Shown in pieces: positions 3,211-55,759 of a stretch of DNA of 64,000 nucleotides. The position numbers and the translations under genes are program-made. The DNA is taken from the NCBI GenBank assembly GCA_963514005.1, contig OY740809.1:14942001-15006000 (forward strand), written 5' to 3'. Every line of letters begins with the position of its first letter. The first letter of the stretch is position 1. This DNA is from Raja brachyura (taxonomy: Eukaryota). The notes beneath the pieces were generated by a model. That model saw nothing but the letters and a program-made list of their open reading frames with translations. It was not told the DNA's origin and ran no database searches.

Positions 3211-3265
3211 CTAGACGCCCTTCTGATTATAGATTAGACCCAACTTCCAGTACCTGCTTATTTAA

Positions 3266-3841
3266 GGGCCTGTCCTACCAGCATCCGACTCCATGCGATG
3301 AGTGCGACCAAACCGGCAGCGGGGGCCGCGCGGAGGTCGGGTGATCCCCTGTACAGGGCCGTTCCCACCAGCATGCGCCTGCACGTGGCGAGCGCGACCA
3401 AACCGGCAGTGAGGGCCGCGCGGAGGTCGGGTGAGTGGCGCAACACGGCGCAAAGTGAGGTGAACTTGGAGCGAAGTCTGAAGGTAAGTTCGCCAGGACA
3501 GAGAGGAACACACAGAGAGGGGCATAGAGGCACACACAGAGCGGGCCATGGAGCCACACACACAGAGGGTCACGGAGGCACCTACAGAGAGGGTCACGGA
3601 GGCACGACGTCGAGGCAGTGTGTAATGCGTCGAGGCAACTGTGAGCCGACAAGCCGTTGCCGCGTGGAATGTTTGAACATAGTCAGTTTTTCGGAGCCCC
3701 GCGCGATGTCGGGACGAACTCCGCACAATTCCGCACGGCTCCGGCGATCGAAGTGGGACCGGCCCCGCGACGCCGGACAGCTCAAGCGACCACGTTAGGT
3801 TGCGCTCATTGCATAGATTTGCATGCTTGTGGGACAGGCCC
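3266..3841. mobile_element. GC/CpG-rich MITE, TTAA-flanked (copy 1)
   Basis: TIR gggcctgtcc(y)ac.agcat ... atgcttgtgggacaggccc, TTAA at 3262-3265 and 3842-3845, internal ~90-bp direct repeat. An inverted second copy lies at 53132-53719. Confidence 0.85.
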
Positions 3842-4469
3842 TTAAGGTTTGGTTTAAAAGGAAACAATGTAATAAAAAGCTGTGACATTTCCCTGGGGTA
3901 TTTCCCCTGCTGTATGTTCCTGCTGCAATACATGTGGTGGACATATTGGATCAGCAGCAGAGGACAGGGGGAGCTGATTATTCTGACTCCTGTAGAAGAA
4001 CGCTAAACACCAGAGTTCTGCACATGAAGCAGGATGTACTTAGTCAAACATGCTTTCTGAAACCTTTCTTATATGTAATTGGTAGTTCTGTTTCAGTATT
4101 GAAGCAACAAACACATTTTATTTGTTTAAACAATGACAGTACTTCCAGAAAACGATTGAATAATACAACACAGCCATTTTCTCCAGAGATAGATTCAATT
4201 GTTTGGAACGGTGACATATTGAGCTATGGATATTAACCTTGCAGCTTAAGTTCCCTAAATGTGCAGTTAATTTGTGATGGCAGCCATGGTTTCCTACCTG
4301 TAAAATCACATTATGCTTGGAATCTTTAATTTACCAGTTCAGTGTCCACTGTTCAGTAGGAGGGATAAGTGACAAGAATATTTTTAGAGGATGAAGACCC
4401 CCTGAGCATCTCTGCATCTTCAGTACAATAGAGGAACAATGCAGGAAAGGAATCCGTTGATCTTGTTTA

Positions 4470-4660: not shown

Positions 4661-5909
4661 AGTGGAAGCCAAATAACCGATCGGAAACAAAGCCAAAACG
4701 CCAAATAACCAAAAGCGTACGAAACCGAAACGCCAACTATCGGAAAGGGTGGGACGCTTAAAAGCAAACTCACCAAAAGGACAGGACGCCAAAAAGCAAA
4801 CTCACCGAATGGCCGCTCTGCCGAAAAGTCAAATAACGGACATGATGTCGCCGGGGAGGGGGGGGGGAGGTGCAGGACTTGTCAACGATTGGTCCAGACC
4901 CCCACGTCCATCACACCGAGCACCAAGTTGTGAGCGGCCGAAGGAACGAATCCCTCGGGACAGCCCCCACTCTCCCACAGCCACGGCCACCCTTCGCCTC
5001 ATCTCCCCCGTGTGGCCGCACTGTGACGGGCTGTGTGTCGGCGGCGCCAGGTGGAGCAGAGGTGTGGGACAGGCTGGCCCCTCCGCCCACCCAGAGTCAC
5101 TGACCGCGATGCACCGCCATTGGACCCAACCCCGGCCGCAGGGAAAGACAGCTCGGGGCATTGGCAGCCATAGTAAATAACATGTGGGGGACACACACGC
5201 AATTCCTTGGCAGGCCGATGACAAGTGTGCATGACAACGAACAATTTTATCTCCTCCCACTCTCCCCCCTGCCCCTTGACAACAAGAGGCACGTTTTATT
5301 TATTGTTTAAACACAGTAATTCCGTCTGGTTGCCTGCGAAACGCACACAAGCTCCCACGCTCAAAACACCAGATAATCTATAATCTGTTTTAACTGAAGA
5401 TGGACACAAAAAGCAGGAGTAATTCAGCGGAACAGGCAGCATCTCTGGAGCGAAGGAATGGGTGGCGTTTCGGGTCGCGACCATTCTTCAGACCTGAAGA
5501 TTGAGTCTGAAGAGTCTCAACCCAAAACACCTCCCATTCCTTCTCTCCAGAGATGCTGCCTGTCCCACTAAGTCACTCCAGCATTTTGTGTCCATCTTTG
5601 GTGTGATAGTTGTCTCATTTCATCGGCTGAGACCATTCAGGTCTGAAGAATGGTCTGGACCAATCGCTGACAGGTCCCGGCCCCCAGCGACGTCATGTCC
5701 GTTATTTGACTTTTCTGCAGAGCGGCCTTTCGGTGAGTTGGCTTGTAGGCGACGCAGCCTTTTGGTGAGTTGCCATTTCGGGAGAGTGGCCTTTTGATGA
5801 GTTTGTCTTTAGGCGTCCCGACCATTCGGTTAGTTGGCGTTTCGGCTTCGTACGCTTTTGGTTATTTGGCGTTTCGGCTATGTTTCCATTCGGTTATTTG
5901 GCTTCCACT
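4661..5909. mobile_element. Foldback/long-TIR non-autonomous element
   Basis: ~240-260-bp imperfect inverted repeats (4661-4900 vs 5650-5909) built of gccaaataaccga and gccaactcaccga subrepeats. It interrupts a CR1 and hosts a Penelope palindrome at 5395-5600. Confidence 0.75.
5395..5600. mobile_element. Palindromic Penelope terminal-repeat insertion
   Basis: gaagatggacacaaaaagcaggagtaattcagcgg...ttcttcagac followed by its inverted copy ...ctccagcattttgtgtccatctt. Confidence 0.75.
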
Positions 5910-21655: not shown

Positions 21656-21871
21656 GTAGGAAGGAACTGCAGATGCTGGTTTAAACTGAAGATAGATACA
21701 AAATGCTGGAGTAACTCAGCGGGACAAGTAGCATCTCTGGAGAGAAGGAATGGGTGACTTTTTAGGTCGAGACTAAAAAGAAGGGTCTCGACCTGAAAGG
21801 CCAATCATTCCTTGTCTCCAGAGATGTTGCCTGACCCGCTGAGTTACTCCATCATTTTGTGTCTATCTTCA
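21656..21871. mobile_element. Palindromic Penelope terminal-repeat insertion
   Basis: Inverted arms of about 85 bp; 11-bp TSD ttcatatcttt (21645-21655, 21872-21882). Confidence 0.85.
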
Positions 21872-22188
21872 TTCATATCTTTATTTTGTTTGATAATGCT
21901 TCCATCAAGAAATTTGAAATTATTTACTACATTTAAATTTCTACTTAAATGCAGGTCATGGTTTTAAACCAAAAAATTGATTGATAAGTTCCTATTTATT
22001 TCATTTTCAAGAGTTAATTAGTTACTCTCAAGATAGTTTAAAATGCAGCACATTTCAGAAACTTGGTCAAGATTTAAATTCTGAAGCTCTCCAGTTGACT
22101 CTTTTTGGGGATTAAGAAAAACATGTAATGATCATATTGGACTGTTATCTAACTGAGTTGATCCTGTAAATATTTGGAATTTATTAAG

Positions 22189-22283
22189 GGTTACACAAAA
22201 AGCTGGAGAAACTCAGCGGGTGCAGCAGCATCTAAGGAGCGAAGGAGATAGGCGACGTTTCGGGTCGAGACCCTTCTTCAGAC
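22189..22283 (-). mobile_element. 95-bp Penelope-derived mini-element with hammerhead core
   Basis: 14-bp TSD tggaatttattaag (22175-22188, 22284-22297); nearly identical to 44727-44820. Confidence 0.85.
22254..22281 (-). ncRNA. Minimal type I hammerhead ribozyme core
   Basis: CTGAAGA-A-GGGT(CTCG)ACCC-GAAAC-GTC gives CUGANGA, stem II, GAAA, palindromic ACGT stem III and a GUC triplet. Stem I pairing is short. Confidence 0.65.
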
Positions 22284-22348
22284 TGGAATTTATTAAGACA
22301 GATTTGAGAATGCATTTGAAATGTTGAAGAGTTTCCCTTAGCCCTAAC

Positions 22349-22440
22349 CAGTCTGAAGAAGGGTCTTGACCTGAAACATCACCCATTCCTTCTCGCCACA
22401 GATGCTGCTTGTCCCGCTGAGTTACTCAAGCCATTTGTCT
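22349..22440 (+). mobile_element. Penelope terminal-repeat fragment
   Basis: gtctgaagaagggtcttgacctgaaacatcacccattcc...gagttactc. Confidence 0.7.
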
Positions 22441-23034
22441 CTAAATAAAATGACCGTACGAAGACGAAGAAATTGGCCAAGGCTTCATGTCCCAGAGTTC
22501 CTGGCGGATGTCAGTTCCATTGCACAGATCCGTTGTGGTTGCTACACAAACATAGACTTGTGACAGCTTTTCACTGACAGTGGACTGACACTTGACTTTT
22601 CCAGAGGCTTGCTGTAAGGCCTGAACACGCTGTAATTTCCCAGAAGTTACAGTGAGATATCTGCCTGCTGAGCCTCTGTCCGGTCTGCTAACCCCATTTA
22701 TTTCAGTGGAGAGGAAGAAAAGGACAAGAAGTGTTTGTGAGTTTGATTTTATGATTTTTTTAATTAAAAAAAAGGATTTAAAGTTCAAATTTTTAAAACC
22801 TTTTAAAGTTTAATGTAAGTTCTTTCATTAATCTTAATAGTCTTTGAATGTTTATTCATGTCGGGAACATTAGAAAGTATTAATATCCTTGTTAGGTTTG
22901 ACTTTCACTTTAACCAACTTTCATTGTCTTGATGGAAGATCATTGACCTGCAACTTTAATACTATTATGTCTCCACAGATGCAGCATGACTTGCCGAATA
23001 TCAACAATATTTCATGTTCTGATTTCAGATTTCT

Positions 23035-27923: not shown

Positions 27924-28119
27924 TGTTAAAGAAGGAACTGCAGATGCTGGAAAATCGAGGGTACACAAAATGCTGGAGAAACTCAGCGGGCGCAGCAGCA
28001 TCTATGGAGCGAAGGAGATAGGAAACCCTTCTGAAGAACCCTTCCGAAATCAGTCTGAGGAAGGGTTTCGGCCTGAAACGTTGCCTATCTCCTTCACTCC
28101 ATAGATGCTGCTGCACCCG
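27924..28119. mobile_element. Palindromic Penelope terminal-repeat insertion
   Basis: Inverted arms cgggcgcagcagcatctatggagcgaaggagatagg / cctatctccttcactccatagatgctgctgcacccg; plus-strand core ctgaggaagggtttcggcctgaaacgtt. Confidence 0.8.
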
Positions 28120-29573: not shown

Positions 29574-30983
29574 TTAGCAGTTTTAAAAGCGATAGTTTAG
29601 ATGGAAGACTAACTTTGGCTGTAACTATTAAAATTGACTGAACAACAGATAATTTTAATCTCCAAAAGTTTTGTCATTACATTTAAAAGATACTGAATGC
29701 TTAGATTTTAAGCAGAAACCAAAATCACTCAACTGAGTGAAAAATATCTAATATCAATGTCATCCAGGAAAGAAGGTAATTTTTTGTATCTATCCATATT
29801 TCTCTGCAATGGAAGGAACAATGTTCACTATTTAATAATTCTCATTTATGATGGGTATGGATTGAAAAATCATAGCCTATCTTCATGTAACTAGTCCACT
29901 GTGCACCACGTGTTGAGATGTGCCATTTTTGGATGCTGGTTACAGGCAAGTGAGATTTTGTATGGAATATTTTTTTATGTTGAAATTTGTTTCTGATCAT
30001 TGCAGCAATGGTTTAGTTTTAATAATGGGCTGCTGCTTAGTGGTGAGTATGGGCCTTATTGGGGATGGAGATCTTCCGCTTCTTGTGCAAAAAGTGCATT
30101 GTACTCTTCTTCCAAAATTTGTCCCATACTTACTGGAACTCACAAAGTTTGCACAAAGAGTACAATCTGACATTAAAACCATATATGCATATTTAGTACA
30201 TGTGAGTAAGGGTAAATTTCTACCACTTAACTACGTAGGGCTGTTTTTCTCACATCAGGATGAAATTTGTTCATTGGACTTACGCTTGCTAGGATTCCCA
30301 GAAAAGAAGTATAAATTGGCAGGTATCTACACCACTAGAGATTTACGTGAAACTTCAGATTAGAAATTGATTGCTAACACTAAGGATACAACATAATGCC
30401 AGCTGCACATTGCCATCCACTTTTTAAATATGTTTTCAATGACTGAACCACATTTTGTAAGCAGATACAATGTACAGGTTCTAATGTGTTATATGTTTAG
30501 AACTAGTGAGGGGTGTAAGATTGCAACCTGTTTCGATGAATGCAATCAACCCGTGCACAATCAAATAAAATCAAATAGAACAATTTGTCCCACAACTTTA
30601 GGCTGTGCACGCCATACGCAAGAAGAAGAAGAACTAGTGAAATATGATGAATCACAATTTGCTCTCCTTTCGTGGGAATGGGCAATGGAATTTGCGGAAA
30701 TAACTCAAACACATTTGCAACTACCCATAGTTTAATTTGCATTCTGACTTACAAGGGCGGAATGCTGCACCCAGATTATGATGTCAGATTGATGTTGGGC
30801 TGCAAGATTCAAAGGTTCTGGGGTATACCCTTCCAATGTGTTGTGCAGAACTGAGCCAGTAGTTCTGGTTTTGAAATACCAGAAAGCTTTCTTCTGCGGT
30901 CTGCATCCACTGTGGAGGCGCGAGTGAAACTGAGATGGGCGGTGATTTACATGTGGAAAATATCAGTGGAGGGCATATTGAAG

Positions 30984-31196
30984 ATTGACACACAGTGCTG
31001 CAGTAACTCAGCGGGACAGACAGCTCTCTGGAGAGGAGGAATGGCTGATGTTTCGGATCGAGTCAGAGACTGAAGAAGGGTCTTGACCCAAAACGTCACC
31101 CATTCTTCTCTCCAGAGACGTTGCCTGTCCTGCTGAGTTACTCCAGCACTTTGTGTCTATCTTTAGTTTAAACCAGTATCTGCAGTTCCTTCCTAT
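30984..31196. mobile_element. Palindromic Penelope terminal-repeat insertion
   Basis: Inverted arms; TSD gcatattgaag / gcatactgaag (30973-30983, 31197-31207). Confidence 0.8.
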
Positions 31197-32556: not shown

Positions 32557-32721
32557 TTGTTTAAGAAGGAACTGCAGATGCTGGAAAATCGAAGGTCGAC
32601 AAAAGTGTTGGAGAAACTCAACATCTATGGAGCGAAGGAAATAGGCAACGTTTTGGGACGAAACGCTTCTTCACTCCACAGATGCTACCGCACCCGCTGA
32701 GTTTCTCCAGCACTTTTGTCT
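32557..32721. mobile_element. Palindromic Penelope terminal-repeat insertion
   Basis: 14-bp TSD aagaacaaaatact (32543-32556, 32722-32735); inverted arms. Confidence 0.8.
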
Positions 32722-35242
32722 AAGAACAAAATACTGTTGTATAGAAGAATTATGCCAGAACTCCTCCAATGGAAATCTGTTGGCGTAAAACATCTATCCC
32801 ATAGGCCAATGATTGGAAATCTTATTATTTTTCTTCTTATATTGCTGTTATAGTGCAATTTACCATATGAAAGCTTCTAATTTTGAAAATAATAAAGACA
32901 AATAATTTTGGTGGGTTATATCGAGGCAAGACACAATGTTGAAAGGCCAGTTCTTGAAAAATAATTGAACTGCGTCCAGTTCTTGGAATTTTGATACTAT
33001 TAACAAACTAAATATATTATTCAAGATGTGCAATGGGATGTTTTATGATCTAGGCATCCAGCTGATGGAAAAAGGAATGTGTGAATATAAAATTAAATGT
33101 CAAAGCCGAGATTTAAAAATTCAAGATCAACGAGGGAAAAGCTAGCCTTTGGACTTTCACACATGAAATGTCAAAGTGATAGAGAGGCATGCTGGTGATG
33201 TGAAATGCTTGGAATAGTCAATAGGAAAGAAAAGTATATGAATAAAACAATCATACTTCATCCAAAAAAATCATAATTGATAACATGCTTTCTTTTGTGA
33301 GCTGAACTATATAAAGAACATTAGTGGAATAAATAAGATCAAAGACCCTAGCCAGTTGATTAGTGGTGTGGCTGAAGCAATGGAGATGATATATACGTGA
33401 GAATTGGTTGCCACACTAAATCGACAAATAAGTTTATGAATGGGCATTTTCCATTTCAAACTTGGATTGCGATTTGCAGAGAAATCCTGTCAGTTCCAAA
33501 TGCCATTGCTGACCCCCCCCCAACACTCTGGCTCCCCACTGCATCATGTACATCTCCCCATTGAAGGGCAGGGAGGAGGTTTACATGGGGGTTGCACCAA
33601 AAGCAAGTGAGGATTTGGCATACAATTTAATAATAATCCTGGGGTTCATTTATTCACCTTTCCCTCACATTAACTTTCTCTATACTTTTGGGTAAGTATT
33701 TCCCTGATTGTCCACTACAGAACCCATTGAATTAAGAAGCCAAATTATACACCAGATGTCAGTGTGGAATTTGTGTAACACATTAGGACTTTTGTCTTCA
33801 AAATTACATCTAGGACTATTGCAATGTTTCAGAAACAATTAGACAGGTACATGGATAGGATAGGATTTGAGGGATATGGGTCAATCGCAGGTAGGTGGAA
33901 CTAGTGTAGATGGGGCATGTTGATCGGTGTGGGTAAGATGGGCTGAAGGGCCTGTTCCCACATTGTATGAGTCTGTGAACTTTCAGGAGAAGCTAGTAAT
34001 GCAGGCACAGCATTGTATTTGATTAAAGAGAATGAGAATGAGAAGGGGAAAGGGTGTGTTCCGATTTCTTCAGAAATATTGTGTGAGCATTGGTCAATGG
34101 CCTGTCACTGGAAATCTGCCTTTAATCTCACATAGTTTCATAGGAAATTGATGACCTTCCTTGGTGGCTTCTTGGTTGTTGCTCTTGACAATAATCAATG
34201 ACCTCACAAGACAACAATGGCCATTTCAACCCCTTCCCTTTGTGGACCAATATACACTTTATTTCCCACGAGGAATACGTCCATGATAGATATACACACA
34301 CAAGGCAAATGGTGAGGGAAAGCAATGTGGCAGTAACAGCTTGCTATTAATAACAGGAGAGGCATGAATTATGGAGTTTAACCATGATAGTGGCTTCTTG
34401 GGGATTGTTATGTAAAATAGCAAGTTAGAATGTATTGCAAAATACCTAGTGAGAATGTGAGATGCGCAGGTTTGTAGGTTAATTGACTTCTGCAAATTAT
34501 CCCCAGTGTCTAGCATGCAACTAATGTATGGGGATTGTTTGTAACTAAGAACTCAATCGGCTGAAGGGTCTGTTTCCACACTGCATCTCTAAACTTGCAT
34601 CATTGGGTTTGCACTGCAGCAGTGCTGTCTATTTCTGGCAGACAGTAGGAGCTGATGTGTCTTTAATTTTGGAAATGTGAACTTCAAGGTAGGAGTTAGA
34701 AAAAAGGGGCGTTACTTCACATTGACATCTGCTGCATTATTTGGCTTCTTAATTCAATGAGTTCTGTTGTGGACAATCAGGGAAATAATAATAAGATTAA
34801 ACGACAACTTACCTGTTCGAAGTTTGATCTTTATTTTATGAGGAGTTACGATGAGGGATTACGTGAAGAAGTCCCGCCTGGCACATGATCGGCATACTTC
34901 AAAGCAGCGGCATGAAAAACACAGAACCAATAGCCGGAGTAAGATAGTAAGGCTCACATAGTCTAGAACTACCAGATGATCATTTATATTATGAGGGTTG
35001 GGAGCGGAAGGCACATAATCCCTCATCGTAACTCCTCATAAAATAAAAGATCAAACTTCAAACAGGTAAGTTCTCATTTAATCTTACTATTTTACTTGGG
35101 AGTCACGTGAGTGACTACGTGAAGATTTTAAAGCTCTGTGTTTTTTATGTCGTAGATTCATTCCATACGACACTCTTAGTCAATACAGTAGTGAGTAAAT
35201 AATATATTTTTTAAAACATTGTTTCAATTTATGTAATGTCTT

Positions 35243-35950
35243 TTAATCTTGCGCTATTTTCCTGACACAATGCCCAATCAGACAGAATGGGGGAAAAGCA
35301 TAAAAGAACATATTCCCCCAATGTAGTGAGAAAGCATCCACCGCTACTGCTCCTGGATTGTGTTCCCATGACACGTATTTGGGCAATTGGTGATTTAATC
35401 TAGATGCAAACAGATCAATGTCCGGTAATCCATACCGACTGACAATATTTTTGAAAACTTGTGGATTTAACATCCATTCTGTACTGTCTTTAAATTTTCG
35501 TGATCTTTTGTCTGCCAAAATATTGTCTCTCCCTGGGAGATAAATAGCTGAAAGCCAAATATTCTTACCAATACACCAATGCCACATCTGGTTTGCCAGA
35601 TGATCACATGATAATGATCTTACTCCACCCATGTGATTGATATATGCCACAGCTGTGGTATTGTCTACTTGTACTTGGACATGCAAATCCTTCATAGTAG
35701 AACAATAAGCTTTTAATCCATAAAATGCCCCCAGTAACTCCAAATAATTTATACCATATGTTTGGAGAAACAAATCCTCTTGGACAGTCCATCTGCCCCC
35801 ACAGCTGGTATTATTATCCGTAGCACCCCATCCGAGAGCACTGGCATCAGTTTGCAAAATCACTGCTGGCTGCTGAACTAACATGTTTTTAACAGCTTGT
35901 GGAACATTCTCAATCCACCAATGTAATTCTGATAAAACTTCCTTTGGCAA
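35243..35950 (-). pseudogene. DIRS RNase H plus N6-adenine methyltransferase-like domain (truncated)
   Basis: RNase H motifs TDAS..GWGA, INYLEL, VDNTTAVAYIN, NILAD; MT motifs DIDLFAS, DAFSLHW, YAFPPF. Confidence 0.85.
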
Positions 35951-36061
35951 TTACATGGGCCTATCAAAATGACCTACTCGCTCTATAAGCGCTTGTGTTT
36001 TTGCCCTTTGGAGATTTTGGTAATGCAGTGGACCAAATTCTACTGCAGGAAATGCTGCTAC

Positions 36062-36960
36062 TCACTTACCAATAACCTTAGCAACTTCTCGGATGGAGGG
36101 ATAAGGTTTGTGAATAAGGCACCGACATACATTTGTAATATCAACAACCTTGTTTATTGGTAAAGTTACTAACATGGTAACTGAATTAATCACAAACCCC
36201 AAATATTCAATACTTTGGGATGGCTGTAGCTTAGATTTTGTTGGCTGGATCAGGAAACCTAGCCTTTCAAACAGACTTGTAGTTGCTGAAACTGATTTTT
36301 CAGCTGACTCCTGATTAGCATTGACAATTAAAATGATATCTAGATAAGCCATAACGATGTGTTTTTGTGCCCTTAGCAGTGCAAGTGCTGGTTTCAACAA
36401 TTTTGTGAACAGCCTAGGAGCTGAGCTTAATCCATCAGGTAATGCTTTGTATTGCCACAGCTGTCCCATCCAATTAAATTTCAAATATCTGCAAAAGTGA
36501 CGATGAATTGGTACTGAATAATATGCATCCTTCAAATCTATTGTAGCCATGTAACAATCTGTCGATACCAGCTGTATTGCAGTGTTGAAGGTATCCATTT
36601 TGAAATGTTTATATTGGACAAAAGTATTAAAATGTGTGAGGTCCAAAATTATTCTACAACCCCCATCTTTCTTGGGTCTGGGGAAAATATTTGATACAAA
36701 TTGTTGTGGATCCACAACTGATTTCTCAATAACTCCTTTTTTAAACAAATTCTTAACCTCTTTATTATTTGAGATTTTTCAAATGCAGAAAACACCAAAT
36801 TACGATTAGGTTTATTCTGTCCCTGTGGATCAATACCTTCTACAAATTCAATGGTAGATCCTAAAACAGTATTTAATATAACCCGGTCAGATGTTATACA
36901 GTCCCATTCATCATAAAACATTTGTAATCTACCACCAATCTGAGGTTCATCCAAAGATTT
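36062..36960 (-). pseudogene. DIRS reverse transcriptase (frameshifted; YLDD mutated to YLDI)
   Basis: GGRLQMF..W..ITSD (pol start), PKKDGGCRIILDL, IDLKDAYYSVPI, LPDGLSSAPRLFTK, AYLDI, YLGFVIN. Confidence 0.88.
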
Positions 36961-38192
36961 TTCTGTGATAGGATAAAGTTTTTGTACTTCTCCGACCGCA
37001 CGTGGTGGTCTCCTTCTCCCAACATATGGGTGAACATTCGGCTGTGCTGGTTGGTAATACTTCTTTACCATATTCCTGCCTCGGCTTGTTCCAGCTCCAA
37101 AATCAAATCCCCTTCTCATTTGACCGGCCCTTCTTTGGCCAAAAATGAAGGGTTTCAAGAGGCTAATAGTCTTTGCCTCATCATCAATATCTTTAATTTG
37201 TTTAGACAGATTTTCTCCGAACAGATAACCAGGAGTTTGAATATTGCTTTTGATCTGCACAGACCTACAAATCTTGGATGTAAAATGGGCCGAATGGCAA
37301 TCTTCCTCATACAATTAATCTAAAAAAAATGAGTTGCAGAACAATGCCAACATATCCTGTTGAACTTTTGTCATTCCACAACCTTCCACTTGCTTCCCAA
37401 AAGCAGAGATGCCAGCCAAAATCAGTTTGAGGACTCTTTGAAATCGTATTTCCTGCGTCCGCATAATTGAAGACATGGGCGACCAAATAGTCGGATTCAC
37501 CGTAGGTACCTTCAGTGAGGCACAATTAACAGGTGGTTTATATAATTCTGCTGTTTCAACCATAACAGCTTCCTGAAGCTGGTGAGAGACCAAATAAATT
37601 AATGTTGGCCGCCAGGTTTTCTTCCATGGCCTCACCGCCTCCTTCAGGTATAGCAAAACATTGTGCCACATCAGGCACACCTGGAATAATATTTTTGTAT
37701 TGTGGTGGGTACTCATGACCAAAATCACCACCTTCAGGATCAGTCTCATGCTGCCCTGGTACTCCTGAGACTTGCTCAAAGGAGACTTCCTCCAGCCCAA
37801 TCCCAGGCTCTGGAGTTTCAAATTCCCAATTCGGTATGGCACCATATTCATGGGGCTGCCTGGGAATATTCTGGATTTTTAGACCCTTGGTTGAATAATG
37901 TCTGGAGCATTTTCTCCATTTGTTCCATTCTAAGCCATAAGGCTTTTCTATCTGGAGGACTTTCAGAATCACAGTCATCAGAAACCACGGGCCTCTCAGA
38001 TTTTCTTTTACATTTTTTAGTCACTGGAATTTCCTCCGTGGCTTCTGCTTGTGGAGCAACCAAAGGCTCACTAACGGGTATTTCAATGGCCACTGGTATC
38101 GGAACCGGCTCCGCACTAATCTGCTGTCCCAACTGTTTTTCTTCTCCCCGGGACGCACGTTTTACCCACGATTTTTTCGGACCTTTCTCCAT
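36960..38192 (-). pseudogene. DIRS gag-like ORF1 (frameshifted)
   Basis: Overlapping ORF pieces 38192-37848, 37978-37556, 37851-37315 and 37314 onward, upstream of pol; P.NC..L.VP.VNP.IW motif typical of DIRS ORF1. Confidence 0.65.
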
Positions 38193-44118: not shown

Positions 44119-44689
44119 AAATTAAACACAGTGTTGGAGTAACTCAGTGGGTCAAGCATGGAGAAAATAGATAGGTGACATTTCAGGTCAGTGCCCTTCT
44201 TCAGACTGACTGTAGTAGGGGGGGAAGAAAGCTGAGAGAACGTCTGGAGTGTGATAGGTGGATACAGGTGAGATGGGGTTGACAAAGGGCAGAGATGAAA
44301 AGACAAAAAGAAAAGGGGCAAGAAATGCAAAGCTAAAGGAAGGATTATGGATGGAAGTGGAAAGGGGGAGGGGGGGGGGAGGTTGGAGGGAGAAATGGTG
44401 CCTATCCAAATGGGACACATGGAAGAAAGGGGTGTTAAGGGGGGAGGGAGGAGTTTGTGGGTAGTTCCACTAAAATTGGAGAATTAAATGTTCATCCAAT
44501 TGTAAGGCACATAAGTGGAAGATAAAGTGCTGTTCCTCCAGCTTGCTCATTCTGGCTATGGAAGAGGCCCAGGTCTGAAATTGATTTTAAATGATTAGCA
44601 CAAAGGATATGCAGCAACCTTGGCTACCTGCGCACGTGTTCGGTGAAATGGACGTCTTATTTATGATCGGGCATGCCGATGTAAAGAAG

Positions 44690-45800
44690 TGTTAAAGAAG
44701 GAACTGCAGAGGCTGGCGAATCGAGGGTTACACAAAAAGCTGGAGAAACTCAGCGGGTGCAGCAGCATCTAAGGAGCGAAGGAGATAGGCGATGTTTCGG
44801 GTCGAGACCCTTCTTCAGACTGGTCAGGGAGCACGGAAACGAGAGATATAGACAGTGATGTGGAGAGATAAAGAACAATGAATGAAAGATATGCAAAAAA
44901 GTATTGAAGATAAAGGAAACAGGCCATTGTAAGCTGTTTGTAGTGTGAAAATGAGAAGCTAGTGCGACTTGGGTGGGGGGGGGGGGGAAGATGGAGAAGG
45001 AATGTCAGGGCCCGAGGGCTGAGGGAGAGGTGGGGAGGGGGAGGAGGTAGTCTGGGTTAACAGAATTGAGAAAATTCAATGTTTAAGCCCAGAGGATGCA
45101 GACTCCCCAAGCGGAATATGAGGTGCTGTTCCTCCAACTTGCGGTGTTGCTCACTCTGGCCGTGGAGGAGGCCCAGGACCAAGAGGTCGGATACGGAATG
45201 GGAGGGGAAGTTGAAGTGCTGAGCCACCGGGAGGTCGGGTTGGTTATTGCGGACCGAGCGGAGGTGTTCGGCGAAATGATCGCCCAGCCTCCGCTTGGTC
45301 TCACCGATGTAGATCAGCTGGCATCTGGAGCAACGGATGCAGTAGATGAGGTTGGAGGAGGTGCAGGTGAACCTCTGTCGGACTTGGAATGACTGCTTGG
45401 GTCCCTGAAAGGAGTGGATGGGGGAGGTGAAGGGACAAGTGTAGCATCTCTTGCGGTTGCAAGGGAAAGTGCCCGGGGGAGGGGTGGAGCGGGAGGGAAG
45501 GGAAGAATTGACAAGGGATTTGCGGAGGGAGCGGTCTTTGCAGAAGGCAGACAGGGGGGGAGATGGGAAGATGTGGCGAGTGGAGGGGTCATGCTGGAGG
45601 TGGCGAAACTTGCGGAGGACTATCTGTTGTATGCGCTGGCTGGTGGGGTGAAAGGTGAGGACCAGGGGGACTCGGCCCTTGTTGTGAGTGGGGGAATGGG
45701 AAGAGAGGGCAGTGTTGTGGGGTATGGAGGAGACCCTGGTGCGAGCCTCATCTATAGTGGGGGAGGGGAAACCCCGTTCTCTGAAGAACGAGGACATTTG
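44690..45800 (-). mobile_element. Young 5'-truncated Penelope-like element with hammerhead-bearing terminal repeat
   Basis: Open ORF remnant 45057-45797, then 3' UTR and terminal repeat with ctgaagaagggtctcgacccgaaacatc (44791-44818). Confidence 0.9.
45057..45797 (-). CDS. Penelope ORF C-terminus: RT thumb/linker, Cys motif and GIY-YIG endonuclease (partial)
   Basis: FRERGFP, VPLVLTFHP, CNRKRCYTC, FTCTSSNLIYCIRCSRCQLIYIGETKRRL...H, VAQHFN, EQHLIFRLGSLHPLGLN. Confidence 0.85.
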   Translation of the reverse strand: MSSFFRERGFPSPTIDEARTRVSSIPHNTALSSHSPTHNKGRVPLVLTFHPTSQRIQQIVLRKFRHLQHDPSTRHIFPSPPLSAFCKDRSLRKSLVNSSLPSRSTPPPGTFPCNRKRCYTCPFTSPIHSFQGPKQSFQVRQRFTCTSSNLIYCIRCSRCQLIYIGETKRRLGDHFAEHLRSVRNNQPDLPVAQHFNFPSHSVSDLLVLGLLHGQSEQHRKLEEQHLIFRLGSLHPLGLNIEFSQFC

Positions 45801-46379
45801 TGATGACTGCCTCAGGCCATGTTGGGAGTGCTAAATGGCATAGATGAGGTTTGGAGAAGATGCACGTGAACTCCTGTCTCACTTGGAAGGACTGTTGGAG
45901 TCCCTGAATGCATGTGAAGGCAAAGGTATAGGGACAAGTGTTTCATCTTCTATGGTTGTAGAATAAAGTACTTGGGGAGGGGTTGGTTTTGGTGTGATGA
46001 GTGAACCAATAAATTGTGGAGGGAGTGGCCTCTGTGGAAAGGAGCGGAGATGGGAAGATTTGAATTGTGATGAGATCACATTAAAGGTGGCAGAAATGTT
46101 GGTGAATGATGTGTTGGATGCTGGATGGAGGGGTGAAAGGTAAGGACCAGGCAAAAACTCTTGTTCCATCTAGAATGAGGGCGAGCGGGAAAGGAACTAC
46201 AATACACAGAAGCACCATGGGTGAGGGATCCATTTATGACAGAAGGAGAGAAACCACATTTACTAAAGGAAGAGGACACCTTGGATGGCCTAGAATGTAA
46301 AGCCTCATCTTGCGACAAATTGTGAGCCAGGAATGGTACCTTTGCAAGATGCAGAGTGGGACGAGGTGTTATCCTTCCG

Positions 46380-46997
46380 TGACCATTTTTACATTGACAA
46401 TACCAAGAATAGACTATGCAACCATATCACCAAACACATGTTCAGTCTGCCAAGGCGTCCTGGTTGATAACCATTTTCCGACTGACCTTTCTCATCCATT
46501 GCCAGACTGAGGACTGGTCAAACTGGAGGAACAGCACCTCATATTCCATTTGGGTAACTTACAACCTGAACGTTGAATTCTCCAATTGTGTGTAAATAGC
46601 ATACAATCAAACTCCCCCCACCCTCCCTTATCCCCCCCCCTTTCCTGCGCCCACCTGGATATGCACCCATTTCTCACTTTCCCCTGTCCCCTTTCATCTA
46701 CATTCCCTTCTGTGGCTTCGCATTTTACAACTCTTCTATCCTTATCTTTTTTTCTCTCACTTTTTGTTTTTTCATCTCTGGCCTTTCTCCAACCATGTGC
46801 CAATCAATTCTCCCCTCACCTATTACTGGCCAGCGTTAGTTCCCACCTCTCTTCAAGCTTTCTTCCCCTCCTACAACAATCAGTCTGAAGGATCCCAATC
46901 TGAAATGTTGCCTATCCATGTTGCCAAGAGATGCTGCCCGACTCGCTCCAGGACTTTATGTCTTTTATGGTAAACCAGCATCTGCAGTTCCTTGTGC
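46380..46997 (+). mobile_element. Penelope 3' fragment in opposite orientation
   Basis: KLEEQHLIFHLGNLQPER-like remnant plus terminal repeat ending accagcatctgcagttcctt. Confidence 0.7.
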
Positions 46998-52835: not shown

Positions 52836-53131
52836 CATCAATTGAAGCTGGTTGTGGTCCTACAAGGAACAATAACAAGTATTTAAGCACACTGGACACT
52901 TACACATAATGATTTGATATGTAGGCTATTTATGGGATTTTTCATTAGTAATATAGATTAAAAATGAAGCTTTTGAAGGGATTGATATTGGATTTATACT
53001 GCAACACACTCTTGGTGATACATTATTAACCTACTCTTTTAGACAGTCAAAGGTACGCATGAAATTTGTGTTTCTATCTTATTATTGTGTTTGCAGAAAA
53101 GATGCGACATTGTATAAGTGAGAAGCTTTAA

Positions 53132-53719
53132 GGGCCTGTCCTACAAGCATGCAACTCTATGCGATTAGCGCGACCAAACGTGGTTGCTTGAGCCGTCCGG
53201 CGTTGCAGGGCCGGTCCCACTTCGATCGCCGGAGCCGTGCGGAATTGTGCGGAGTTCGTCCCGAGTTCGTCCCGACACCGCGCAGGGCTCCAAAAAACTG
53301 ACTATGTCCAAAAATTCCGCGCGGCAACGGCTTGTCGGCTCGCAGTCGCCTCGACGCATTACAGACCGCCCCGACATCGTGCCTCCGTGAACCTATCTGT
53401 AGGTGCCTCCGTGACCCTCTATGTGTGTGGCTCCGTGGCCCTCTGTGTGTGTGTGCCTCTGTGCCCTTCTCTGTGTGCCCCTCTCTGTCCTGGCGAACTT
53501 ATCTTAGACTTCGCTCCAAGTTCGCCTCACTTTGCGCCGCGTTGCGCCACTCACCTGACCTCCGTGCAGCCCCTACTGCCGGTTTGGTTGCGCTTGCCGC
53601 ATGCAGGCGCATGCTGGTGGGAACGGCCCTGTACAGGGGATCACTCGACCTCCGCGCGGCCCCCGCTTCTAGTTTGATCGCGTTCATCGCATAGAGTTGC
53701 ATGCTTGTAGGACAGGCCC
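53132..53719. mobile_element. GC/CpG-rich MITE, TTAA-flanked (copy 2, inverted relative to copy 1)
   Basis: TIR gggcctgtcctacaagcatgcaactctatgcgat / atcgcatagagttgcatgcttgtaggacaggccc; TTAA at 53128-53131 and 53720-53723. Confidence 0.88.
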
Positions 53720-55759
53720 TTAACTTTAATTTGAACCCATTTATTACAATCTGGCTAAAAATGCATCTAAGGAGCTTTGGGCAGCTGTTAATTCCACAAC
53801 ATTTTTTAAGCATCAGATACATCATTAGAGAGCCAGGTGGCTGAAGAAATTTGCCCAGAGAAGCAAAGCAATTGAGAAATCCCTAGAACTCCATTTATGC
53901 TTGCTGATTTTGAAGTGTACACGTGTGGCCTTGGGGTTTGCACCATATTCCGTCCAGCGTGCCTGTGGAAATTGGCACAAGGCAAGGCAGAGGGAAGTCA
54001 ATTTGAAACTGAAACTAAGCAGGCACTTTAATCCTTCAGTGCAGTCCAGATTCAGTTTGCCAGCCACCAGTGCTTGCACTTGGCACTAACCTTAAGCCAA
54101 AGAGTCATGGCCACATTCACAGATGGAGCTGTTTGCTGCAAACTCAAATTCAAACCCAGTTTCACCTATTTTAACTTAAAAGTGGTAGGAATGGAGAGGC
54201 AGAAAATAACCAAATGCACATTTTGGCTGTAAACAGAAAATAATTTTAATTGTGGGTTACTGCACTGCTAGCGGTAGCCCTGAAGTTCCTCCTGAGAGGG
54301 ATTTGAAGGCTCGATGACTCTGTGGTGGGCAGGACATCCGCACTGCTTCCTCATGTTTTTTTTGTTTGTTCTTCCCATAATTGCCAAAAATTAGAACCTT
54401 AAATGTGTGAGCTTCAAACGAGGAAAATTCCGACTGAATTCCTGTACAAATCCCGAGCAAGATCACCGTAACTAAAACACTCATATTTGCCAGAGAAAGT
54501 AATTCATTTCAAATTAATTGATTTCAAATTGGCAGAACACATTAGTATTTTCCAAACTGATCTCACTGGCCTCCGTGTCCTTCTTCTTGGAGAATACTGA
54601 TGCGCAAAGTTCTTATTTAGTACCTTGCCTTCATCCTCTGACTCCAAGTACAAATTCCCTCCTTCATCCTGAGATTCAAGTGAAAAGTAACTGTTGAACC
54701 TCATCAGATGTGATTTGGGCCTTTTGGCTGGAATCCCATGTTCCTGCTTGTGTTTCAAGTTGTATGGTATGAGCAGCAAAATAATTGCCTCTTTATTTTC
54801 CTACAGTCTCTACTGCTATTAACTGGCTACGACTATACTTGCAGCTAGTAAACAATCAGAGATGCCAAATGCTTACATTTTTTTTACAGAGATACTGATT
54901 ATGGTGCATGAATGACATTAATGTTTTCGCATAACTTGGTAATATTATTTGCCACCACCCTCTTTAATCTTTCCTTCATCAGATCTCCAGTCTTTCTCAT
55001 CTATGCATGCGTTGTTTGGACAAGTAGAAGCGAATATTGCAATTTAAGTATATAGATTTCAAAACCAAATTTGCATTTTTGCAAATAAATTTGTGAATTT
55101 TCCTTCAAGAAATGAAGTGGGCCAGGGGGCTAAGAATATTACATTTTTAAGACCATTTGACCCAATAAATCAGTTCTGCTGATAACAATCCTCAGATCAG
55201 TTGATAAGTTGCCTCTCGCAAGGACAGAGATTTTGTGGCATGAAGGCGAATGATTGTCAATGAACAGTGAATAATCAATATGTACTTTGGAAAGAAAGAG
55301 TAAGTTGTGGCCGCCTTATCTATTAAACCAAGGTGACATTGTTTTTGTAGTATCTTAACATAATCTTGTATAAGATATCAATCTACAACTCCTTGTGTTG
55401 CTGGGTTAGTTTAATAAAATAAACTAAACGATCTGTAGATAGTTTTAATTGCTTTAATCTTCGACTGTTTAGAAATTAAGCATAAAATTGAGCTCTAAAT
55501 AAATAATACATTAGGAAGGCAGTTTATTTGGATGTTACTTTAACCATGATAAATACACCATATGATTCAACATTTTACATGTTCGTACAATTGAAAGGCG
55601 TTGTTTGTCTCCCCTCATTATCACCTCCTCCGCAGCCAACAATGGACCATTGTGGGTTTTTGGTCATCAGTACTGGCTCTGATCCTTTTCATACCTCTAG
55701 TTTCCCTCTTCCCTGATGCACAGTCTGAAGAAGGGTCTTGTCCCAAAACATCATCTATT

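Follow-up and report, generated by a model that had tools for sequence, protein, structure and literature searches.

A short hammerhead-bearing insertion in Raja brachyura is probably a 5' run-off product of a Penelope-like element

Results

The 95-bp insertion at positions 22189-22283 (minus strand) of the window, a 64,000-nt stretch of the Raja brachyura genome (contig OY740809.1), consists of the tip, hammerhead included, of a Neptune-type Penelope element of 3.98 kb, an element of a known kind. Rather than representing a ribozyme family of its own, the insertion is probably a by-product of this element, and we think it likely, though well short of certain, that it arose as a 5' run-off product, with reverse transcription primed ~94 nt into the uncut Penelope RNA and running off at the RNA 5' end. 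Positions are numbered below on the element strand, 0 being the C of CTGAAGA (C3 of the hammerhead), which corresponds to window position 22281 on the minus strand.

The insertion and its parent element

The preliminary description had placed the insert between perfect 14-bp target-site duplications (TSDs), and identical 14-mers do flank the 95 bp at 22175-22188 (plus strand, on the 3' side of the element) and 22284-22297 (plus strand, on its 5' side), the chance of such a 14-mer at one given offset being 1.2e-8. In contigs of run X19 (organism H) and of the single sample behind runs X21/X24 (organism J), 22174 is followed directly by 22284 at the full depth of the flank, so that 109 bases are skipped, with 14 letters that fit both sides. 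The duplicated sequence is present as a single copy at this empty site, and the filled left junction is found with 0 differences in run X20 (organism I). These empty-site joints and the filled junction show the insertion at 22189-22283 to be young and its TSD to be genuine. Its ends are blurred by microhomology of 2 nt and 3 nt (22187-22189 and 22283-22286), which accounts for the 2-nt overlap of the element with the TSD copy on its 3' side. An older-family tip, ~81% alike, lies 33 bp from the insert in the opposite orientation (22331-22442), and the repeat is also present in assembled contigs of run X1, which we guess to be RNA.

The insert is identical at 99/100 positions to the tip of a young Penelope copy in the same window (44724-44823), a near-identity that had been proposed earlier. 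Both its Penelope origin and the suggestion that a Penelope protein moved it are supported. The young copy (44690-45803, minus strand) is 5'-truncated and consists of the endonuclease end of the ORF, the 3' UTR, the hammerhead tip and a 35-nt tail (44690-44724); it has a 257-aa open frame with a sub-threshold GIY-YIG match and is ~97% identical to a full unit of 3,980 nt (locus L331), which we reconstructed by a stepwise walk up the element. The full unit opens with the hammerhead tip. Next comes an upstream frame of 41 codons, which in L331 spans +50 to +175 and overlaps the main ATG (+163) of the long ORF that follows. Since the complete unit opens with this tip, the insert, which covers positions -2 to +92, is both the 3' tip of the pseudo-LTR (pLTR) and the 5' UTR of the unit. 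In another copy (L276) a frame of at least 1,161 codons matches RVT_1 (E 5.8e-4) and then GIY-YIG (E 1.7e-3), both below the Pfam cut-off, and this order within one ORF is that of EN+ Penelope-like elements. The ORF also has the linker CNRKRCYTC (CX4CXXC), which agrees with the CX2-5CxxC of Neptune, a motif that the part of PMC8557442 cited here describes as common to Nematis as well, and the clade is accordingly read as Neptune type by the linker motif alone. The features of a pLTR are likewise present, namely partial tandems (12 of 17 ORF-joined copies), an inverted neighbour (21 of 90 boundary copies, see below) and a 35-nt tail (52 of 127 copies).

The 2.7-Gb genome has 19,816 exact copies of a 53-mer beginning at the core and 36,428 exact copies of the element's 3' 40-mer, and a profile search found 486 matches in 980 kb of one dense region. 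There are 19 further matches in the window to the region around the 44.7-kb Penelope copy. Decayed older Penelope pieces (44122-44566 and 45841-46922) surround the young copy, suggesting a nested insertion, and older inverted pairs of the tip are located at 5395-5602, 21657-21871, 27924-28119, 30979-31195 and 32558-32723, where weak microRNA-like Rfam matches are due to a hairpin artefact. Apart from these, the minus strand at 35243-38020 has broken frames that match RVT_1 (E 8e-19) and then, weakly, DNA adenine methyltransferase, an order known from DIRS-type retrotransposons, and a 600-bp repeat occurs twice in inverted orientation, at 3262-3845 and 53128-53723, the copies being 88% alike.

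The hammerhead core

The core CTGAAGA-A-GGGT(CTCG)ACCC-GAAAC-GTC, which the preliminary description had read on the minus strand, is found at 22281-22254, where it forms a predicted minimal type I hammerhead. It consists of CUGAAGA, an extra A, a 4-bp stem II with a CUCG loop, GAAAC-GUC and a loopless palindromic stem III, and its sequence thus shows the features of the minimal hammerheads of Penelope-like elements (PMC4209133), viz., CUGANGA, GAAA, NUH, an extra nucleotide before 10.1, G10.1-C11.1 and a palindromic stem III. Cleavage is predicted between 22254 and 22253 and would give a product starting at +28. The caution raised earlier over a stem I of 2-3 bp was justified, as we find 2 bp; among 250 copies, the two pairs (U-G/U-A and G-C) are present in 194 and 204, respectively, and a third pair in 22. 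An RNA start at -3 would leave stem I with at most three 5' nucleotides. An Rfam scan of the window, which is uninformative for minimal forms, returned no hammerhead among 26 matches at E<=5.

Excess conservation of the core over its flanks, which had been put forward as a check on ribozyme function, is not seen in young copies, the mismatches in the young family being 16/940 in the core and 185/8381 elsewhere. A larger raw gap between the core and the rest (33/1134 and 716/13011) vanished after removal of subfamily-polymorphic sites. Between the two families the core is invariant at 11/11 positions, as against 79/95 overall, and no two-sided change of stem II was found among the commonest pairs. 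The tip folds no better than its shuffles (z 0.38, 0.42 and -0.23). In the tailed 132-nt form (44690-44821) the purine run of the core can pair with a pyrimidine run of the tail; such pairing would sequester the hammerhead core, and the folding z-score is not significant. Related motifs are described as cleaving weakly as dimers or with the help of protein (PMC11167929, PMC4209133, PMC6765202). We infer that the hammerhead is a passenger in the inserted copies.

Ends of the copies

As loci selected on the core cannot show ends inside it, copies were anchored on the 3' part only, using 98 contiguous 10-kb stretches and the 30 first pattern loci; this gave 155 copies, one of them censored, from the start of one chromosome, with both arms of inverted pairs counted (21/90) and at least one duplicated locus. 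The 5' ends of 90 of the 154 copies lie at -8 to +6 (81/127 in an earlier subset), 27 further inside and 37 upstream; ends do cluster just upstream of CTGAAGA, as the preliminary description had proposed to test. The rate of 5' ends is 0.066 per nt at this boundary and 0.0042 on either side, such that 5.7 ends are expected and the boundary stands at 16 times background; because of this, the insert is not a random truncation, and the proposal of an extreme random 5' truncation fails. In the window insertion the shared boundary falls at 22282-22286 (minus strand; 22284-22286 overlap the TSD by microhomology) and would mark the RNA 5' end. Of the 19,816 exact core copies in the genome, 5,842 (~30%) match exactly as far as -12.

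The 3' ends of 127 copies form two clusters 35 nt apart, 75 at +89 to +101 and 52 at +121 to +129, against a reference that ended at +129 and beyond which one copy (L141) visibly runs on. The first cluster, at 22187-22192 (minus strand) in the window, may be the first of two start sites of reverse transcription, such as the cited part of PMC11167929 describes. TSDs of 8-17 nt, some of the shortest possibly due to chance, are present in 37/81 boundary copies, and the flanks of the 90 boundary copies are host DNA in 64, an inverted copy in 21 and a sense match in 5, two of the last being short stutters.

None of the 140 copies at risk ends at the cut site (+27 to +30). Counted genome-wide, two untemplated letters precede +28 in 232 copies, and precede the two control sites, +35 and +41, in 165 and 187; on inspection, 6 of the +28 matches proved to be 4 point mutants and 2 fold-backs. 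There may be a small cleavage signal at +28, yet it is not needed.

Ends also gather elsewhere along the unit. Several truncated copies, including the young Penelope of the window, which begins at 45803, and L064, L144, L138, L032 and L014, begin within ~10 nt of one another at unit positions ~2986-2995, ~990 nt before the rear hammerhead, and the front piece of the composite L322 ends at 2991; a second RNA end, an internal start or a sub-master copy are possible readings of this cluster. The 5' ends of 6/154 copies (among them L061, L063, L105, L113 and L118) fall at -261 to -271, in an AT-rich stretch just before the ORF stop codon.

An extra G, such as a capped RNA would leave, precedes 16 of the 25 host-flanked ends at -2/-3, where 8.2 are expected (p=0.0014, the classes having been chosen after looking), and 8 of the 32 other host-flanked ends (10.5 expected); at -3 alone it is seen in 6/12, which is not significant, and G-GT junctions can also arise by slippage to the internal GGGTCT. 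No extra G is seen at the 5' end of the window insertion, where 3 nt of microhomology are present. The letter before the boundary is, genome-wide, G in 2039, A in 1075 and T in 627 copies, but on inspection 14/30 G loci were fold-back or self-derived, 5 shared one flank and 2/30 had a clean single extra G; this count is not used as support because it is confounded by fold-backs and re-amplified loci. The inverted-pair tips L184, L191, L197, L203 and L204 have one downstream flank in common and therefore represent one insertion re-amplified inside another repeat.

Composite insertions

A front hammerhead is attached at 17 of 38 distinct loci with the ORF start; 5 of these 17 begin at 0 to -4, and the remaining 12 are partial tandems that continue in register upstream. 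The 5 loci, 4 of them picked for their boundary start, were followed along with 7 other loci. Seven composites were obtained (the 5 boundary-starting loci, L329 and L332), each with a 3'-shortened front piece that ends at unit position 524 to 2991, a linker of 1-12 nt that is mostly A- or T-rich, and a short tip that resumes at -7 to +3. Six of the seven lie under one TSD of 11-15 nt, and three composites are found among the 8 loci not picked for their start. Five composites thus reach the boundary twice within one insertion.

Discussion

The run-off account would explain these ends as follows. The reverse transcriptase would prime on nicked DNA at +94 or +129 of the element's own uncut RNA, and the cDNA would run off the RNA 5' end and then integrate or jump. 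The boundary, at about -4 to 0, would be the capped transcript start, and its CCAGTCT fits the initiator consensus YYANWYY; no downstream promoter element is claimed, the ACGT being 3 nt off the Drosophila spacing. If the hammerhead tip is present at each end of the RNA, the short run-off products would come from priming at the front copy and the ordinary truncated copies from priming at the rear one. A jump of the run-off cDNA to the 3' end of another RNA would produce the composites: in the order of synthesis, the enzyme would make the short tip, reach the boundary and then jump onto a shortened RNA at its 3' end. A jump in register to the rear tip copy would produce partial tandems. An RNA 5' end would also account for the double arrival at the boundary in five composites, and the absence of ends at +27 to +30 among 140 copies suggests that the inserted copies derive from uncut RNA. 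Counting against this account are the 12/17 ORF-joined copies that run upstream in register, which need an added assumption, and the fetching of 4/7 composites because of their boundary start. The Penelope transcript of D. virilis, in the portions cited of PMC2377424 and PMC4209133, starts not at the hammerhead but ~120 nt before it (46 nt and a 75-nt intron), which likewise counts against the run-off account.

The short units could in addition be a self-propagating non-autonomous family, with an internal promoter, both priming sites, transcription from their own loci and the Penelope protein acting in trans. This is compatible with run-off as an added route and would suit the excess of short over long copies (90 and 37 of 154), their fixed ends and their TSDs (37/81, 8-17 nt), as well as the internal promoter of D. 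virilis Penelope that is mentioned in the cited part of PMC2377424; moreover, because internal priming leaves no flank behind, self-propagated copies would look the same. We nevertheless consider it unlikely, as 73 short and 32 long copies can be told apart at no position and a variant at +80 is common to both (14/73 and 6/32), a comparison of limited power. Diagnostic changes of an independent SINE-like family are, in this small sample, absent. Alternatively, the RNA may be longer, and the boundary may be the point at which a structure or a bound protein stalls the reverse transcriptase. This would account for the ~30% of exact copies that pass the boundary in register, and the clusters near -265 and -990 indicate that ends also concentrate where no RNA end is known; this reading appears improbable to us given that the tip folds no better than shuffles, that five composites stop at the boundary twice, with untemplated linkers, and that extra G is in excess at the -2/-3 ends.

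The sequence upstream of the boundary is pyrimidine-rich and ends in CAG, and in D. virilis an intron ends at helix I (PMC4209133), such that the boundary might be a 3' splice site (a pyrimidine tract and CAG|T at -1) and the short copies might come from processed RNA. However, 48 ends keep -2 to -4 as against 11 at -1, and no upstream exon is shared by 66 host-like flanks, in which the commonest 8-mer occurs in 4, and we regard splicing as very improbable. Our lowest estimate goes to the retrozyme-like route, in which hammerhead cleavage and ligation would yield a small circular RNA that is then reverse-transcribed, and which we hold to be barely credible despite the minimal hammerhead outline, the +28 count at 1.2-1.4 times the controls and the derivation of retrozymes from pLTRs stated in the cited part of bioRxiv 10.64898/2026.07.22.740005. 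The start of the units precedes the cut site by 28-32 nt, 0/140 begin at it, and none of the 90 boundary copies has a unit-length head-to-tail neighbour, the two short stutters being all that was seen. Thus, the preliminary suggestion of an independent retrozyme-like family does not hold, because the unit spans the cut site, unit-length tandems are lacking among the 90 copies, variants are common to short and long copies, and long copies begin at the same point.

With the run-off account as the preferred reading, the element can be compared with known systems. In the excerpted text of Craig et al. 2021 (PMC8557442), EN+ Penelope-like elements of the Neptune type share with it a single long ORF with RT and then GIY-YIG, the CX4CXXC linker, heavy 5' truncation, partial tandems, inverted copies and an optional tail of 30-40 bp, whereas that text describes no dominant fixed-length product of ~95/130 bp and no composites formed by run-off and a jump. 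Poseidon of Anolis carolinensis, as presented in the portion cited of Frangieh et al. 2024 (PMC11167929), likewise has a hammerhead near the ORF start and two internal priming sites that bound a tail, and in vitro uses uncleaved RNA as a template, the length of the product being set by the template 5' end. However, it belongs to a different clade in which the ORF starts in stem II, whereas here the ORF starts at +163 behind a 41-codon frame, and that portion reports no genomic 5' boundary, whereas a fixed one is seen here. The minimal hammerheads of Penelope-like elements (PMC4209133) share the core boxes, the extra nucleotide between 9 and 10.1, G10.1-C11.1, the palindromic 15.2-16.2 and thousands of solo motifs; helices II and I, 4 bp and 2 bp here, are longer in the schistosome families (7-8 and 4-5 bp). 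The cleave-and-circularise model of the same paper predicts ends at GUC, but none is seen here among 140. Non-LTR retrozymes, in the cited parts of PMC7229834 and bioRxiv 10.64898/2026.07.22.740005, are also short and non-coding, with a type I hammerhead, a relationship to pLTRs and long TSDs; each unit of their tandem repeats has a hammerhead, whereas the copies here are solo or head-to-head and span the cut site. The unit here is not set by the cut site, and the window insert is solo.

A search of the literature, with most subscription papers and Repbase/Dfam outside its scope, found no strong-stop or template-jump account of the pLTRs of Penelope-like elements, although short pLTR products may be described in supplements to these papers. 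Minus-strand strong-stop DNA with strand transfer in LTR elements and end-to-end template jumping in R2 both involve priming near the RNA 5' end, run-off and transfer to a 3' end; here, by contrast, a nick in the genomic DNA would supply the primer, and it is the run-off product that would be integrated. As a tentative joint reading, which we put forward as rather less probable than not, replication of Penelope elements of this type may pass through a strong-stop step like that of retroviruses, in which chromosomal DNA serves as the primer ~100 nt from the capped start, followed by run-off and an obligatory transfer to an RNA 3' end, with failed transfers accounting for most insertions, mis-transfers for the composites and in-register transfers for the building of the pseudo-LTR. 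In that event, the ~100-nt products, which have neither a tRNA head nor a poly(A) tail, may also be the smallest retroposons that propagate themselves.

Between close relatives, the single insertion can serve as a presence/absence marker. For annotation, the record of ends is a warning that such abundant units of ~100 bp need not be a separate SINE or retrozyme; exact coordinates are now available for RNA-end and in vitro tests. How Penelope-like elements build their pseudo-LTRs and what the hammerhead does are questions raised in PMC11167929 and PMC4209133. Tens of thousands of near-identical copies record the steps, viz., two priming sites, one stop point and jumps, and almost no products start at the ribozyme cut. 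This record of ends therefore favours run-off and transfer over cleavage and circularisation.
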